A DNA stretch of 50,559 bases from Candidatus Woesearchaeota archaeon (lineage in GTDB: Archaea; Nanobdellota; Nanobdellia; Pacearchaeales; GW2011-AR1), in NCBI GenBank assembly GCA_964594495.1, contig CAZQLX010000001.1, forward strand, positions 1 through 50,559, given 5' to 3'. Below, one piece after another: positions 41,180 to 48,964 of this stretch (its first letter is position 1; every line of letters begins with the position of its first letter). The notes under the pieces are model-generated. The model was not told the DNA's origin, did not search any database, and worked only from the letters and a program-made list of their open reading frames with translations. The position numbers were made by a program, and so were the translations under genes.

Positions 41180-43609
41180 ATGAAATTAAATTTTAGAAAA
41201 ATTGCCTCGGTTCTTGCAAGCACAGTTATGATTAGTTCGACAGCAGCATTGGCTGTAGCAGCAAACTATCCAGCTCCTTTCGTACAGAATGGAATGGCTG
41301 ACGTTGCTGTTGTTTGGGGTACAACTGCCGCAAACACAGACCTTGTAGCTGTAACTGATATTACTGCTAGCTTAGAAGCAGAACTAGGGAAGCAAGCTCC
41401 AACAACACCTACTACAAACACCACAATAACTGGTGCGAGAGATGTTGTTAAACTTGAGAAATCGAGTGATAAATTTAATCTAGGAGATACAATGAGTGGA
41501 GTATTTGGAGCAACAGTAGATGATGAGGATCTAGAAGTTTTGTTGGCTGATGGTACATATCTCAATGATGAAAACACAGAGTATGAATATGAGCAAAAAC
41601 TTACTCTTCTAGCACGATCATTAACTTACTTTGCAGATTCTGACTATAAGGACAAAGAGCCTACGGTTGGATTCCAAGTAAGCTCGGGTGTGCCTGTATT
41701 AAACTATACACTAGACTTTACCACGGATGCAGAATCTGATATAACTAGCGGAGATCTTGTTGATTTTGAAACAACTAATCTAAACATATTAGGCAAGAAT
41801 TACTATATTCTTGATTTCAAGAACGACAGTACTAGCGCGAATACATATTCTGGAAAAGTTACCTTACTAGATGCTGCAACATCAGCAATAGTAACTGAAG
41901 GTGAAACTCAAACTGTAACAGTTAATGGAAAGTCATATGAGGTTGCAATAAACTTCGTGACTTCTAGTAACGTAAAGCTTGAGGTTAACGGACAAGTTAC
42001 AAATTCTTTAGCAAATGGAGAAACTTTCAAATTGACTGATGGTACATACATCGGTATCAAAGAAATTCTTCATAACGCAAAAGATACTGGTATAAGTAAG
42101 ACTGAATTCAGCATAGGGTCTGGAAAATTAGAGATCACTTCTGATGGAAGTGAGATCGAATTAAACGATGACGCTGTGGATGGAATGAAAGGTTGGTTTG
42201 TTAAAGGTACTAAATCGGGTACTAAGGAAAGACTTGATAAATTCGTTCTACAGTGGGATACTGACGAGGAGGAATTTATTGCTCCTTCAGCAGATCTTGT
42301 TCAGCCTGGATTCCAAGCTATTAAGTTTTCCATGACAGAATTTGTAGTTCCTTCACCGGAAACTATAAATGTTGATCATGATGGAGACGATAGTATTGAA
42401 TTGAAAATACCAATAAAAGATGGTAGTGCTAAATTCAATCTATTAAAAGCTAACTCAACTGGTGGTATCGACTTAATTGGAAAGGATACTGATCAGAGAC
42501 TTGCTACAACAAACGAGAGCGTACTTTACTATTATCAAACAGTATCTAGCAACAACTATCATAGATGGTTTGTAGCTTCTTACAATACATCAGATAATTC
42601 AGAATCTTATTTGTTATCTGCCTCTGTAACAGAAAGTGAGGGTAAAAACAGAACAACAATTAAGAACGAAGTAACTGGTGAAAATGTTTGTACGGATAAA
42701 GTAGCTGATGATGTGTGTGACATAGGTGATGTATCATTTACCATTACACAAGTCAACAGAACGAGTAGTGATAAAAACGTTAAGATAACAGCAGCAGCAG
42801 CATCGAACACAAAGTTCGATAGAATATATTCTAAAGAAGGACTATTGGTCTTCTTACCTGTAGCTGTTAACGGCACTACGAGTTCGACCGCTCCAGGTCA
42901 TATCAACTTAAACATCTCTAGTACTAGCGCAGGTTATAACCGTGATAGTTACTATGTGTTTATGGAAGAAGAAGACAAGGATGACGACGTTGCAGAAGGT
43001 GTAAGATTTAACGTTACTGTCAATAACGACGCTGACGGAGATCTACATATATCTGCAGTAGACACAGGTCAAACTAACAAGGACATTCCAGGTAGTGATG
43101 ATGACACTACAAGCAGAGTTGTATCAGCACTAGCTACTAAGGTAGACAGAATAGTCGCTGCCGATAGAGGACAAGCTTTGATAACATACTCTGGTAAAGA
43201 GGCTTACGCTCAAGTATACTTAACTGATACAGGAGCTACGGCTTCAAGTGGAGGAACTTCACAACTAGGATCTGTTTCCGTAAAGGACTCAGAAGTTGCA
43301 TCGGTTTCTGGCAAGAACTTAATTGTTGTTGGTGGAAGCTGTGTAAACACTGTGGCTGCTGAATTATTGGGAGTGACTGCTCCAGCATGTGGAGAGGCAT
43401 TTACCGCGGCAACCGGAGTGGGTGACGGTCAATTCTTGATCCAATCCTTCTCAAGCAAGTGGGCAACTGGTAAAATCGCAACTCTTGTTGCAGGTTACAA
43501 CGCTGCAGATACCACAAACGCTGCCAAATACTTGACAACACAAACTGTTGACACAAGTGCTGGACAGAAGATGGTAAAAACTTCAGCAGAAGTAGCAACC
43601 TTAGTTTAA
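41180..43609 (+). CDS. S-layer (surface layer) protein
   Basis: It has the Sec signal peptide 'MKLNFRKIASVLASTVMISSTAALAVAA'. The N-terminal 'NYPAPFV' and C-terminal 'LIVVGGSCVNTVAAELLG' resemble euryarchaeal S-layer proteins as I remember them. It has T/S/D/N-rich composition, many N-x-S/T sequons, a strong SD and a T-rich terminator. Confidence 0.7.
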   Translation: MKLNFRKIASVLASTVMISSTAALAVAANYPAPFVQNGMADVAVVWGTTAANTDLVAVTDITASLEAELGKQAPTTPTTNTTITGARDVVKLEKSSDKFNLGDTMSGVFGATVDDEDLEVLLADGTYLNDENTEYEYEQKLTLLARSLTYFADSDYKDKEPTVGFQVSSGVPVLNYTLDFTTDAESDITSGDLVDFETTNLNILGKNYYILDFKNDSTSANTYSGKVTLLDAATSAIVTEGETQTVTVNGKSYEVAINFVTSSNVKLEVNGQVTNSLANGETFKLTDGTYIGIKEILHNAKDTGISKTEFSIGSGKLEITSDGSEIELNDDAVDGMKGWFVKGTKSGTKERLDKFVLQWDTDEEEFIAPSADLVQPGFQAIKFSMTEFVVPSPETINVDHDGDDSIELKIPIKDGSAKFNLLKANSTGGIDLIGKDTDQRLATTNESVLYYYQTVSSNNYHRWFVASYNTSDNSESYLLSASVTESEGKNRTTIKNEVTGENVCTDKVADDVCDIGDVSFTITQVNRTSSDKNVKITAAAASNTKFDRIYSKEGLLVFLPVAVNGTTSSTAPGHINLNISSTSAGYNRDSYYVFMEEEDKDDDVAEGVRFNVTVNNDADGDLHISAVDTGQTNKDIPGSDDDTTSRVVSALATKVDRIVAADRGQALITYSGKEAYAQVYLTDTGATASSGGTSQLGSVSVKDSEVASVSGKNLIVVGGSCVNTVAAELLGVTAPACGEAFTAATGVGDGQFLIQSFSSKWATGKIATLVAGYNAADTTNAAKYLTTQTVDTSAGQKMVKTSAEVATLV

Positions 43610-45460: not shown

Positions 45461-46099
45461 CTAATGTTTAATTCTATTATTCTTCTTCAGCTTTCTTTTT
45501 ATTAAAATATACAAAATAATGATTACCAAACACGCTACAACGAGCCATAAGGAAATAATGCCGAGATGATCTCTAATTATATCAATATTTGCACCGAAAA
45601 GAATGCCGAGATAAAGCAGAATTGCGACCCATATTGCTGCTCCTAGCGCTGTATAGATTGTGAATTTTGCAAGATTCATTCTAGCAAATCCTGCGGGAAG
45701 GGAAATTAATTGTCTTATAACAGGTAACAAACGTCCAACGAAGGTTGTTAATTCTCCATGTTTCTCAAAAAATCTCTCGCTCTTCAATATACTTTCTTCT
45801 GAAATAAAGAATATTTTACCATATCTTTTAACTAGTTTGTTTACTGCTCCTCGACCTAAAAACAAAGCAATGTAATAATTAAAGTATGCTCCTACAAGAC
45901 TACCTGCGACCCCTGCAATAAATGCAATAATGAAGTTCATTTCCCCTCGTGAAACGAGAACCCCTGCAGGAATCATTACTACCTCGCTTGGAAACGGAAT
46001 AAAAGAACTTTCTATGGTCATTAAAATGAAAATTCCAAAATATCCAAAACTTCCAACGGCGTTTACAACAGCATTAACTGTTTGATCAAACCAAGACAT
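45461..46099 (-). CDS. DedA family membrane protein
   Basis: It has '[17 protein letters not shown]', 'GR.LPVIR' and matching topology. Confidence 0.8.
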
Positions 46100-46228: not shown

Positions 46229-46756
46229 TTACTTTTTATACCTTATTTCTTTAATTATTGATTTTACATCGGTATAAACTGGAATTGTTTTTATCTTAAA
46301 CATCCAAACATTCACAAACCAGAGGATTATCACGAGTAAAGTACTTCCAATATACCAAGTTATTTCATGAGCGATGGAGAAATAAGAGGCCCCGTTACTA
46401 ATTAAAGATCCAAAAATGACTATGCGGATTATATTAAGAATGAGGAAAGCTAAAATGAGGAAAACTAGGCTTTTAACTCTCTTTTTTGGCTTTATAGGTG
46501 TTGTTAAATTGAGAATAACTAAGAAATAATATGCTGCTCCGGCAACACATGCTGCTAGAATTTGAGCTTTAATGCCTCCTATGAGCAGAACATTTCCATC
46601 GATTAGTGTGGCTCCTACGAATTTACCTAAAAGCCATGCTGAAGGATAGACAGTTAACGGAGTAAAAATAAAATAGAAGATAAATAGGTTTGGAATTCCC
46701 AATAGAATAAGAATTAAATATCGTGATAATAAACCTAATGCCTCTTTTTTGTTCAT
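46229..46756 (-). CDS. Mini archaeosortase/exosortase-family protein (pacearchaeosortase-like)
   Basis: It is 175 aa with about 5 TM helices. Candidate catalytic residues are Cys70 ('ILAACVAG'), Arg111 ('NIIRIVIF') and His130 ('SIAHE'). As I recall it, the Cys-to-Arg spacing of 41 equals that reported for Haloferax ArtA (C173/R214). Confidence 0.55.
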   Translation of the reverse strand: MNKKEALGLLSRYLILILLGIPNLFIFYFIFTPLTVYPSAWLLGKFVGATLIDGNVLLIGGIKAQILAACVAGAAYYFLVILNLTTPIKPKKRVKSLVFLILAFLILNIIRIVIFGSLISNGASYFSIAHEITWYIGSTLLVIILWFVNVWMFKIKTIPVYTDVKSIIKEIRYKK

Positions 46757-46905
46757 TCAAAGGAATAATAAAGAGGGTTTAATAAACTAATTATTTACTT
46801 TTACCTTAATGCATAGACGATAGACACATATCATCTGAGTGTACACTGGCTAAGCAAAAATTAAGATATTAAGATTAATTACTTTATTAGATAGTTATTC
46901 AAAGG

Positions 46906-47313
46906 TTAAGTTAAGTCATAAGGAGTGTCTCGGGCATTAAGGCGGACTACACTACCAGTTGTTAAATTGGCGATGTCCTTTATTTCCAAGACAGCCACGC
47001 CCATCTCCCTGTATTCAACACGTCCTATAACCATTACTTTGTCACCTCGAGCAATAGCTATGTAAGTAGAGTCTAATTCAATTTTTGCAGAATATCTCTT
47101 AACTCTGGGTAGAGGATTTCTCTCTAGGGGATCTATTCTTACTTCAGTAATTGTCTCTCCTTCGGATGTATCACGTTCTCTAAGAGCATCAATTACTCCA
47201 ACAATAGTACTCTTCTTATTTCCATGCTCATCAATGAACTTTTTTAATGATTTTTCCATGACTTGATATTGAGCTAAGAGGGGCAATAACGTTTTAATCT
47301 CGTCTAGAAACAC
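46906..47313 (-). CDS. Hypothetical protein (the ORF-track start is a GTG overlapping the upstream gene; alternative ATG at 47259)
   Basis: The call rests only on the ORF, which lies between the acidic surface protein and the archaeosortase-like gene. Confidence 0.45.
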   Translation of the reverse strand: MFLDEIKTLLPLLAQYQVMEKSLKKFIDEHGNKKSTIVGVIDALRERDTSEGETITEVRIDPLERNPLPRVKRYSAKIELDSTYIAIARGDKVMVIGRVEYREMGVAVLEIKDIANLTTGSVVRLNARDTPYDLT

Positions 47314-48964
47314 TTACAGCTACAATTATGATTATAATAATAAGCACAACGTTTATTCCAGCAATTATCCAGATTAATGTGTTGTCTCCAAGATCTACTC
47401 CTTTTCCAGAGCCGTTATCGTCGAATGTAACTGCAACTTCTCTAGTTTCTACTCTATCTCCAGATTGGACTCTTATTACAAATGAGTTTTCTCCTTCAGC
47501 ATCTTCATCAACATTGAATGTTAATGTTACTTCTCTGTTTGCTCCAGGAGCTATTGTTACTAATCTGCTTGAAATTGAGTCTAAGTCTGCCCAGGATTCA
47601 TATCCTGAAGCGTCAATAACAAAGTCTGCATTTGTACTCATAAGATTTGTGATTGTTGTTCTTACAACCATCTCTTCTCCAGGCTGTGCATCAGAATCTA
47701 ATGAAGCTGAGATTGAGGCAATTCTTCCTGATGTTGAACCATTATTTGCAGGAGGTTGAACTGAGCATCCTAAAACAGTTAAAGCAAAAGATTCTGCCTC
47801 ATCTGATTCTTCTCTGTATGTTCCTGATCTGTAATCATATTCTGCTGATAGATCCATTGAGTATGTTCTATCTCTAGCATTTTGAGGTATTGTAAATGTG
47901 AATGAAACCGGTCTATCATCTCCTTGATCAAGTCCTTGTCTCAATTCTGAAGACAAATGGATGTTTAACTCATCTATATCAAGATTTGCCTTAACTTGAT
48001 CTTGATCCTCATCTCCAACATTGAATACGTCTGCAGTAAGAGTAACTGAATCTCCACATGTCGCCTCTGAAGGTGAAGTCTCAATATTATCAAATGCTAT
48101 GAATTTTCCTTCGTCATCTTCAGCAGTTATATCAATTGTTTGGAAAAAATTATTATCTAAATCAGATGATGTATCTGTGCAGACATCTGATTCTCCTTCA
48201 TCATCACTGTATGCTTTTACAACCAATTTGTAATCTCCCTCATCGACATCGGCAGGTACTCTGAATTCGAATGTAACCGTGTCATCATCTCCGTCATTTA
48301 AGTCTCCCATGTCGATTTCTTCTTCATCAGTATTGAAGAAGTCTAGATCGCTGATTATATTGTCTCCAGATGAGTCAAAAAGACCGAGTTCAACAAATAC
48401 ATCGTTTAAGTCGTCATTGCCAGTGTTTTCAACGTTGACATCAACTGTTATTCTATCTGTTGGCTTCCATTCCTCATCTTCATCTCCATCACTGCTTATA
48501 TCTACTTCTTCAATAGATAATTCTAAGTCTGATGTTCCAATTTCTCCATCAGTGCAGAAGCTCTTGAAAAATGTAATTGTTTTATTAATGCTAGAAATTT
48601 GAGTGCCACTTGAAACGTTTGTACCTGTGGCTCTAAGAGTAGCTGTATAACTTCCGAACTCTAAATCATCACTAATGCTTGTTGCTCTTATTGTAGCAGT
48701 AGCAGAAGAATCAACTCCGAGATTATTAATTTGAGTTGGACTTATTGATAATGTAACTTGATCAGATCCTGAAACAATATTGGAAACAGTTAGCGCAATA
48801 TTTTGAGCTACCGTGTCATCATTTGTTATTGTAACAGTTGTTTGATTATTTGCAATAGTTAAATCATTTGGAGTAGAAACAGATAATGTGCTAGCGACTC
48901 CTAAAGATAAAACTAAAAGCGCAACAAGACTGAAAATTATTGAAAGATTTTTTGTGATCTTCAT
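47294..48964 (-). CDS. Highly acidic secreted surface protein with CARDB-like repeats and a C-terminal sorting-signal-like tail
   Basis: It has the signal peptide 'MKITKNLSIIFSLVALLVLSLGVAS', repeated beta-sandwich-like segments ('VDVNVENTGNDDLNDVFVELGLF', 'LTADVFNVGDEDQDQVKANL'), and the tail 'GDNTLIWIIAGINVVLIIIIIIVAVSVSRRD'. Confidence 0.65.
   Translation of the reverse strand: MKITKNLSIIFSLVALLVLSLGVASTLSVSTPNDLTIANNQTTVTITNDDTVAQNIALTVSNIVSGSDQVTLSISPTQINNLGVDSSATATIRATSISDDLEFGSYTATLRATGTNVSSGTQISSINKTITFFKSFCTDGEIGTSDLELSIEEVDISSDGDEDEEWKPTDRITVDVNVENTGNDDLNDVFVELGLFDSSGDNIISDLDFFNTDEEEIDMGDLNDGDDDTVTFEFRVPADVDEGDYKLVVKAYSDDEGESDVCTDTSSDLDNNFFQTIDITAEDDEGKFIAFDNIETSPSEATCGDSVTLTADVFNVGDEDQDQVKANLDIDELNIHLSSELRQGLDQGDDRPVSFTFTIPQNARDRTYSMDLSAEYDYRSGTYREESDEAESFALTVLGCSVQPPANNGSTSGRIASISASLDSDAQPGEEMVVRTTITNLMSTNADFVIDASGYESWADLDSISSRLVTIAPGANREVTLTFNVDEDAEGENSFVIRVQSGDRVETREVAVTFDDNGSGKGVDLGDNTLIWIIAGINVVLIIIIIIVAVSVSRRD

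Follow-up and report, generated by a model that had tools for sequence, protein, structure and literature searches.

A pacearchaeosortase and PACE-CTERM gene pair, a probable one-enzyme, one-substrate sorting module in a Pacearchaeota-type DPANN archaeon

ArtA of Haloferax volcanii is the closest studied homologue of the enzyme described here. Its critical residues are Cys173, Arg214 and Arg253 (PMC9263693), and its lipid attachment depends on PssA and PssD (PMC9263693 and the artA literature). For the exosortase/archaeosortase family as a whole, Haft has proposed a Cys/Arg/His triad. The nearest described system is a pair of NCBIfam families, NF033505 "pacearchaeosortase" and NF033506 "PACE-CTERM-PROT, putative S-layer protein". 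Public homologues in GenBank already carry the names pacearchaeosortase and putative S-layer protein. In the literature, no paper was found that uses the names pacearchaeosortase, paceosortase or PACE-CTERM, nor was experimental work on the subfamily found; a metaproteogenomic paper on Pacearchaeota makes no mention of S-layer or sortase.

The locus analysed here lies in a stretch of 50,559 nucleotides, referred to as the window. With a probability of about 0.85, it represents an ordinary pacearchaeosortase/PACE-CTERM system, that is, a one-enzyme, one-substrate sorting module of Pacearchaeota-type DPANN archaea. The initial annotation had described three open reading frames on one strand, and all three are present, on the minus strand (Table 1). 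It had also suggested an undescribed recognition motif and system; this is not so, since NF033505 and NF033506 already curate both members. The outcomes that it had named as refuting, namely no archaeosortase profile match, a tail unconserved in orthologues and a triad that varies among homologues, were not observed. The system catalogued by NCBIfam is thus rediscovered here. Sizes, Cys/Arg/His residues, tail, gene order and lineage are the same as in the curated pair, and nothing essential differs; the locus departs from it in an ORFan between the two genes and in Ser551 of the tail.

Table 1. Positions of the genes, signals and putative catalytic codons at the sortase locus.
Feature	Size or residues	Position	Strand	Basis or remark
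DedA/VTT-family membrane protein	212 aa	45461..46099	(-)	PF09335; directly downstream of the sortase gene
Pacearchaeosortase, mini exosortase/archaeosortase member	175 aa	46229..46756	(-)	NF033505, TIGR04178, triad
His130 (putative catalytic)	codon CAT	46369-46367	(-)	
Arg111 (putative catalytic)	codon CGC	46426-46424	(-)	
Cys70 (putative catalytic)	codon TGT	46549-46547	(-)	
ORFan	135 aa from GTG 47313 (117 aa from ATG 47259)	46906..47313	(-)	no family match
PACE-CTERM protein ("putative S-layer protein")	556 aa	47294..48964	(-)	NF033506, CARDB, AF2
C-terminal sorting signal, LGDNTLIW-IIAGINVVLIIIIIIVAV-SVSRRD	residues 525-556	47297..47392	(-)	column conservation and tail HMM
Predicted N-terminal Sec-type signal peptide of the 556-aa protein, MKITKNLSIIFSLVALLVLSLGVAS		48890..48964	(-)	read from sequence

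Judged by these profiles, the gene pair is almost certainly the known pacearchaeosortase with its PACE-CTERM protein. The 175-aa protein scores 211.1 bits (E 1.1e-62) against NF033505, whose curated NCBIfam cut-off is 80, and the alignment is full-length, residues 8-171 aligning with positions 3-166 of the 167-position model. The TIGR04178 signature is matched over residues 68-152 with 28.5 bits (cut-off 23). Membership in the exosortase/archaeosortase family, as annotated initially, is therefore upheld. A Pfam-A search of the protein gave no significant match, which indicates that Pfam models do not reach the pacearchaeosortase subfamily. The enzyme is encoded by a single-copy gene, the NF033505 match being confirmed on the genome, and it shares 61% identity with the nearest public protein. 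Cys70, Arg111 and His130 are located exactly as had been claimed. Cys70 and His130 are the sole Cys and the sole His of the protein, and all three residues are invariant in the 30 genus-level relatives (30/30) and in the 36 database homologues (36/36).

The AlphaFold2 (AF2) model of the enzyme (pLDDT 84) contains long helices at residues 3-20, 25-47, 68-84, 90-119 and 126-152, besides an amphipathic helix at the C-terminus. The earlier estimate of about five transmembrane (TM) helices agrees with these five long helices, whereas hydropathy and the positive-inside rule favour four true membrane passes; the estimate is thus approximately right. As far as helix positions in the model go, Cys70 lies 2 residues, Arg111 8 and His130 4 from the end of its helix (68-84, 90-119 and 126-152, respectively), all three ends being on one side. 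The connecting loop 85-96 is rich in Lys and Arg, which would place these triad-bearing helix ends on the outer side, so that the triad side of the modelled protein is predicted to face outside. A sequence-profile search of the PDB with the sortase gave zero matches at E up to 10, and a Foldseek search of its model against the PDB gave nothing below E 0.8; as no solved relative was found by sequence or by fold, there is no template against which to check the triad.

The 556-aa protein scores 515.2 bits against NF033506 (NCBIfam cut-off 110), with residues 28-555 aligned to model positions 114-627 of 627 and thus reaching the C-terminus of the model. The first ~110 model positions have no counterpart in it, as in many orthologues. 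The genome encodes a single copy, and the protein is strongly acidic, with 19.4% Asp+Glu and a net charge of -79, the fourth most negative value among the 479 genome ORFs of at least 200 aa. Pfam identifies CARDB (42 bits), and also NPCBM_assoc and DUF4352. The AF2 model (pLDDT 88) shows four beta-sandwich (Ig-like/CARDB) domains; residues 518-528 form a disordered linker and residues 529-554 a terminal helix, and the N-terminus forms a helix at 9-17 followed by a low-confidence stretch up to the first beta domain. The earlier description of a secreted, Asp/Glu-rich protein with CARDB-like domains is consistent with the signal-like helix, the charge and the CARDB match. Foldseek matches of the model in the PDB are generic Ig/macroglobulin-like multi-domain strings with TM-scores of 0.15-0.23; the top 50 include no solved S-layer protein. 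Another protein, of 809 aa, is encoded 3.6 kb away at 41180-43609 and matches Pfam S_layer_C (31.9 bits); for this reason the "S-layer" label of the 556-aa substrate may be wrong.

The C-terminal tail consists of the signature motif, a TM helix with the intramembrane Asn538, and a basic end; the tripartite string quoted in the initial annotation is exact. In this region the protein is ~54% identical to its nearest public proteins. The consensus among orthologues is [LF]-G-[DG]-N-x-L-[IL]-W-[IV]-I-[GA]-x-[IV]-N-[VI]-x-L…V-A-V-R-x-S-R-R, or in shorter form [LF]-G-[DG]-N-x-L-[IL]-W-x-I-G-x-[IV]-N…R-x-S-R-R. The columns of 43 homologues are conserved at N528 (38/43), W532 (41/43), N538 (41/43), L541 (43/43) and A549 (41/43), and these positions, together with RR 554-555, are all kept in the 556-aa protein. 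No other 16-residue stretch of the substrate is as well conserved as the tail, which has a mean column identity of 0.74 against 0.34-0.63 elsewhere. Ser551 replaces the Arg or Lys found in 42 of the 43 homologues, and counts against the pacearchaeosortase/PACE-CTERM reading. When the tail HMM was run on 3992 genome ORFs, the 556-aa protein alone was found (E 2.4e-12; next best E 0.21), and it is thus the sole carrier of a tail that is conserved in its orthologues. Further substrates were sought with the tail HMM and with a generic scan for C-terminal TM segments with basic ends, and only non-matching tails were recovered; the nearest look-alike is encoded on contig 27, an ORF of 1117 aa with the ending …LGDKGSMIWIIIII…, and is not significant (E 2.9).

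Compared with ArtA, the enzyme shares the superfamily, as indicated by the TIGR04178 signature, and the Cys-to-Arg spacing of 41 (Cys173/Arg214 in ArtA, Cys70/Arg111 here), which the initial annotation had given correctly (PMC9263693). The 556-aa protein, like the S-layer glycoprotein and other PGF-CTERM substrates, has a tripartite tail abutting a TM helix, and is a candidate major envelope protein. The two systems differ in several respects. The enzyme is 175 aa long here, against an artA gene of 912 bp. The third critical residue reported for ArtA is Arg253, whereas the third invariant residue of the pacearchaeosortase is His130. The motif is G-D-N-x-L-I-W plus the intramembrane Asn rather than P-G-F, which is absent from the 556-aa tail, and there is one substrate per genome instead of many. 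Finally, the sortase genes of this subfamily have DedA-superfamily and PAP2 neighbours, in contrast to PssA/PssD for ArtA.

The ArtA model is not among the NCBIfam matches of the 175-aa protein; the only archaeosortase-subfamily matches are ArtE (26 against a cut-off of 95) and heimdallarchaeosortase (23 against 130). Very small size, on which the initial annotation had remarked, is real at 175 aa but not unusual in the superfamily, since the profiles of ArtE (TIGR04124), XrtM, XrtH, XrtR, XrtY and XrtX have 150-168 positions, and the range is 150-199 when heimdallarchaeosortase (NF045528) is included. Similarity to the catalytic cores of these mini-subfamilies is weak but real (E 7e-6 to 0.17). 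Membership of the 175-aa protein in any of them was rejected, as its scores are far under their cut-offs.

The 212-aa neighbour of the sortase matches the PF09335 VTT_dom model with 88.5 bits and the UptA-like model NF052604 with 140.8 bits, under that model's cut-off of 250. It is the sole DedA protein of the genome and probably an accessory lipid transporter. Downstream of the sortase in related loci, a DedA protein is found in 13 of 29 and a PF06695 member of the DedA superfamily in 11 of 29 (together 24/29). From this conserved position we infer that the 212-aa protein may be part of the sorting system. The relationship between DedA and PF06695 itself rests on Okawa et al.; homology was not detected when 14 DedA and 10 PF06695 neighbours were compared with hhalign (probability 0.4%, Neff ~2.5). 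A PAP2 gene neighbours the sortase in at least 8 of the 29 loci, and none was detected in the source genome by tblastn with the protein of one relative. PF01066 (PssA-type) and PF02666 (PssD) are absent from the source genome, which is 79% complete, and PF01066 is present in just 13 of 61 relatives; the lipidation route of ArtA, with its PssA/PssD-dependent supply of archaetidylethanolamine, can therefore not simply be transferred to these archaea. In a genome without PssA/PssD-type genes, any acceptor lipid would need to be scavenged, and it is generally accepted that DPANN archaea obtain lipids from their hosts.

For this system we infer export, the cleavage and where it occurs, attachment to a lipid and a part for the DedA protein, as follows. 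The acidic protein with its four Ig domains would be exported by Sec, in keeping with its predicted signal peptide, and its C-terminal helix would keep it in the membrane for a time. At the outer end of this helix, the enzyme would recognise the signature G-D-N-x-L-I-W together with the intramembrane Asn. By analogy with Haloferax ArtA, Cys70, with Arg111 and His130 near the outer membrane face, would attack the chain and remove the helix and the basic tail. Transfer from the acyl-enzyme to a membrane lipid would be the most likely resolution and would leave the envelope protein lipid-anchored; resolution by water, which would release the protein, is less likely. The DedA-superfamily transporter next to the sortase may present scavenged lipid at the outer leaflet. 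The substrate tail is probably cleaved by the 175-aa enzyme; lipid anchoring of the product is more tentative, with a chance slightly short of even.

Across related genomes, the sortase is found above cut-off in 58 of 61 and the PACE-CTERM substrate likewise in 58 of 61. Of the 57 genomes having both, 44 have the two genes within 2.2 kb of each other, namely 33 of 35 from the same family and 11 of 22 from other families of the order. Here the substrate gene is upstream of the sortase gene, with a gap of ~0.5 kb. Given the single tail-bearing protein of the source genome and this co-occurrence and adjacency, the pair is, on gene content, a dedicated 1:1 cassette. The initial annotation had added the intervening 135-aa ORF to the cassette, and a three-gene unit, in which this protein would be a functional partner such as a chaperone or regulator, barely deserves credence. 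The ORF does share the strand of the two genes and lie between them; begun at GTG 47313 it overlaps the substrate gene by 20 nt, and begun at ATG 47259, as in its public database entry of 117 aa, it follows that gene by 34 nt. Yet its homologues are missing from all 29 syntenic loci (29/29) and all 60 related genomes (60/60), which rules it out as a member of the cassette, and the sortase and substrate genes are less than 100 nt apart in many relatives. It is practically an ORFan: profile searches (Pfam, NCBIfam) gave no match, and a search of 1.8 billion representative proteins returned only itself and one marginal match (E 4e-5). The protein is also soluble, with neither TM segment nor signal peptide, and the GC content of the ORF, 0.384, exceeds the window mean of 0.328. 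Its C-terminal half has a weak similarity to an OB-fold repeat; the likeness is to P0122, itself with a sub-threshold Pfam match to an OB-fold.

Two other readings accept the gene pair and differ on the fate of the tail. The tail might be a permanent, unprocessed membrane anchor, the small membrane protein having another role and adjacency reflecting a shared envelope function. Tail-anchoring is common in this genome, where several other large proteins end in a TM helix and basic residues without the tail motif, and no experimental data on sortase processing of the tail were found in the literature. This reading is nevertheless very improbable: the polar and aromatic residues N528, W532 and N538 are conserved far past the needs of hydrophobic anchoring, the enzyme retains the invariant Cys/Arg/His of a protease family, and, even among genera with only ~45% identity, the pair's co-occurrence and adjacency are near-perfect. 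More deserving of attention, if still rather unlikely, is a pure endopeptidase (sheddase) that cuts off the helix and releases the acidic protein for non-covalent assembly on the cell or host surface, with no lipid involved. An ArtA-type acceptor would not be made in-house, as the PssA/PssD-type genes are absent and a CDP-alcohol phosphatidyltransferase occurs in so few relatives; one-step transpeptidation is, moreover, unproven even for ArtA (Haft). Against this, ArtA gives a lipid-modified product, and the DedA-superfamily and PAP2 neighbours of the sortase point toward lipid involvement. With host lipids within reach of DPANN archaea, missing synthesis does not mean a missing acceptor.

For the preferred sorting module, the identification by itself adds nothing, as standard NCBI annotation would name both genes. 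A more speculative extension, to which only a small chance is given, is that the sortase, with the neighbouring DedA/PF06695 protein acting as scramblase or flippase and often a PAP2 phosphatase, couples the envelope protein to a host-scavenged lipid. If true, this sortase-DedA route would be distinct from the PssA/PssD-fed ArtA pathway and would operate in lipid-synthesis-deficient DPANN archaea; the 175-aa enzyme would in addition represent, for the exosortase/archaeosortase superfamily as a whole, the catalytic core in its minimal form. The very small enzyme, the clean 1:1 ratio of enzyme to substrate and the sharply conserved motif (N528, W532, N538) make the pair a good candidate for a first structure or reconstitution in the superfamily. 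The DedA-superfamily neighbour and the absence of PssA/PssD raise the question whether a lipid anchors the protein in organisms unable to synthesise their own, and if so which one. The sortase pair occurs almost throughout a large order of archaea that are ultrasmall and probably depend on hosts, and its single substrate is likely to be the main exposed surface protein of these cells, which would make it their interface with the host.

The 175-aa protein is assigned to NCBIfam NF033505, "pacearchaeosortase", scoring 211.1 bits (cut-off 80) over 164 of the 167 model positions. It also scores above the cut-off of the superfamily signature TIGR04178 (28.5 against 23 bits), and a Pfam search of it returned no recognised family. 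A very small archaeosortase carrying Cys70, Arg111 and His130 had been proposed in the initial annotation, and both the reading frame and the three residues are confirmed in the sequence. Cys70 is the only cysteine and His130 the only histidine of the protein. None of the three varies, whether among sortases taken from different genera (30/30) or among database homologues (36/36); Y28, T35, R93, N108, W134, W146, P159 and D163 are further invariant in the 30-genus alignment. A Cys/Arg/His triad is suspected throughout the family (Haft). In ArtA, the archaeosortase of Haloferax volcanii, the critical residues are Cys173, Arg214 and Arg253 (PMC9263693), so the Cys-to-Arg spacing of 41 proposed for ArtA is correct and equals that of Cys70 and Arg111.

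Features of the sortase region and of related loci
Feature	Position	Strand	Remarks
809-aa secreted protein	41180-43609	plus	Pfam S_layer_C, 31.9 bits
DedA/VTT protein	45461-46099	minus	directly downstream of sortase gene
175-aa ORF, pacearchaeosortase	46229-46756	minus	NF033505 and TIGR04178 matches
135-aa ORFan	46906-47313	minus	GTG start; public version 117 aa from ATG 47259
556-aa ORF, PACE-CTERM protein	47294-48964	minus	NF033506, 515.2 bits (cut-off 110)
PAP2-superfamily phosphatase, related loci L004, L009, L012, L016, L023, L027, L029, L031	about 2050-2800 each	opposite to sortase	54-84 bits

The putative substrate belongs to NF033506, "PACE-CTERM-PROT, putative S-layer protein". It possesses a signal-peptide-like segment at the N-terminus and Ig-like domains identified by Pfam as CARDB, NPCBM_assoc and DUF4352. 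Asp and Glu make up 19.4% of its residues, and its net charge of -79, the fourth most negative among the 479 genome ORFs of at least 200 aa, agrees with the acidic secreted protein first described, whose C-terminus had been quoted exactly. Since both proteins match these NCBIfam models and public homologues are already named pacearchaeosortase or putative S-layer protein in GenBank, the pair is already curated and represents a correct rediscovery of a catalogued putative sorting system. A literature search found no paper using the NCBIfam names of the pair. Identity to the nearest public homologues is 61% in the sortase and about 54% in the substrate's tail region.

A tail consensus was derived from 20 syntenic same-family orthologues and 43 database homologues: [LF]-G-[DG]-N-x-L-[IL]-W-[IV]-I-[GA]-x-[IV]-N-[VI]-x-L-I-I-x-I-I-[IV]-V-A-V-R-x-S-R-R. 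The motif is thus kept in orthologues, with N528 in 38, W532 in 41, N538 in 41, L541 in 43 and A549 in 41 of the 43 homologues, and nowhere is the protein better conserved than in its last 16 residues (mean column identity 0.74 versus 0.34-0.63 elsewhere). All key residues are present in the tail of the window, LGDNTLIWIIAGINVVL…VAVSVSRRD. Directly after the TM helix, residue 551 (47309-47311, minus strand) is Ser in the window and Arg or Lys in 42/43 homologues. The window keeps RR at 554-555. The substrate model (pLDDT 88) consists of four beta-sandwich domains, a disordered linker (518-528) and a helix (529-554), which would place G-D-N just outside the helix and W532 and N538 within its outer part. 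Across the order's other families the motif drifts, as in …GFDLATVNIVLV… and …NPVWITIDIALI…, and these tails keep an aromatic residue and, after it, an intramembrane Asn or Asp. Shorter PACE-CTERM paralogues of about 420-450 aa, under the family cut-off, are also found in those families (loci L054-L073); they have a distinct conserved C-terminus, in which the TM helix is followed by a short basic and then an acidic stretch, the last residues being …E-[ES]-Y-Y.

Sortase and substrate genes are each present once in the 771-kb, 79% complete assembly. Since the tail HMM matched only the substrate among 3992 genome ORFs (E 2.4e-12; next best 0.21), the putative enzyme-to-substrate system is one to one. 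This part of the proposed dedicated cassette therefore stands, while the pair, already in NCBIfam, is not undescribed. A 1117-aa ORF (contig C27:2903-6253, plus strand) was rejected as a second substrate, its tail HMM match not being significant (E 2.9); it ends …LGDKGSMIWIIIIIVIIIIAVVIGVIIYHSMRKH, a loose echo of the LGD…IW tail start that lacks both conserved Asn.

Sortase and substrate family are each above cut-off in 58/61 related genomes, and some of the absences coincide with a contig end or a fragmented assembly. When coordinates were compared between the two profile searches, the genes lay within 2.2 kb of each other in 33/35 same-family genomes and in 11/22 genomes of the order's other families. 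The sortase occurs in 66/301 genomes of a phylum-wide sample, including other orders of the class. In two genomes from these orders, the pacearchaeosortase gene is duplicated in tandem, with both copies above cut-off (G201:C8:12228-13245 and G338:C25:1928-2991), and more than one substrate class may exist in those lineages.

The ORFan between the two genes had also been proposed as a cassette member, which is not borne out, as no counterpart was found in 29 syntenic loci or in 60 related genomes. It has no family match in Pfam or NCBIfam, and a search of 1.8 billion representative proteins returned nothing but the ORFan itself and one marginal match, a protein of 365 aa that has a three-fold repeat and a weak, sub-threshold OB-fold signal; residues 62-101 of the ORFan (from ATG 47259) resemble the repeated unit. 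At 0.384, its GC content exceeds the mean of the window (0.328). It is a lineage-specific insert between the substrate and sortase genes.

The "S-layer" name of the substrate is only a guess by NCBIfam. The top 50 results of a fold search with the substrate were generic Ig/macroglobulin-like strings, with no solved S-layer protein among them. The genome thus encodes two distinct candidates for its main envelope protein, the PACE-CTERM protein and the 809-aa S_layer_C protein, which lies 3.6 kb from the substrate gene and has no C-terminal TM helix.

The AlphaFold2 model of the sortase, built on a 36-sequence alignment (pLDDT 84, pTM 0.78), places a small beta element (50-65) between two helices (3-20, 25-47) and three more (68-84, 90-119, 126-152), which are followed by an amphipathic helix (161-173). 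Three consecutive helices carry C70, R111 and H130, at distances of 2, 8 and 4 residues from the helix ends that lie on one and the same side. Because loop 85-96 is rich in Lys and Arg, the side opposite these ends is probably cytoplasmic, and from the helix positions all three residues would lie close to the outer membrane face. No solved relative was found by sequence or fold search. Most likely, the substrate would be exported by Sec, its motif recognised at the outer end of the C-terminal helix, the protein cleaved through Cys70, and the product transferred to a scavenged membrane lipid. Simple release after cleavage, without lipidation, is a less likely rival reading. ArtA-dependent lipidation in Haloferax requires PssA and PssD, which make archaetidylethanolamine (PMC7157517), whereas PF01066 (PssA-type) and PF02666 (PssD) are both absent from the window's genome (79% complete) by profile search; PF01066 occurs in only 13/61 relatives.

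The DedA/VTT protein is the only one of the genome. In 29 related loci (L003-L031), the slot after the sortase gene is occupied by DedA in 13 and by a convergent PF06695 ("Sm_multidrug_ex") gene in 11. Okawa et al. (bioRxiv 10.1101/2020.12.18.423352) place PF06695 among the remote members of the DedA superfamily; hhalign of DedA and PF06695 on shallow alignments detected no homology. A PAP2 phosphatase gene adjoins the sortase gene in at least 8 of the 29 loci, and where the substrate gene is in the same locus, the PAP2 gene sits between substrate and sortase genes; tblastn found no PAP2 in the window's own assembly (79% complete). The recurrence of DedA or PF06695 after the sortase gene suggests a functional link between protein sorting and lipid transport, in which a DedA-type protein may supply the scavenged lipid.
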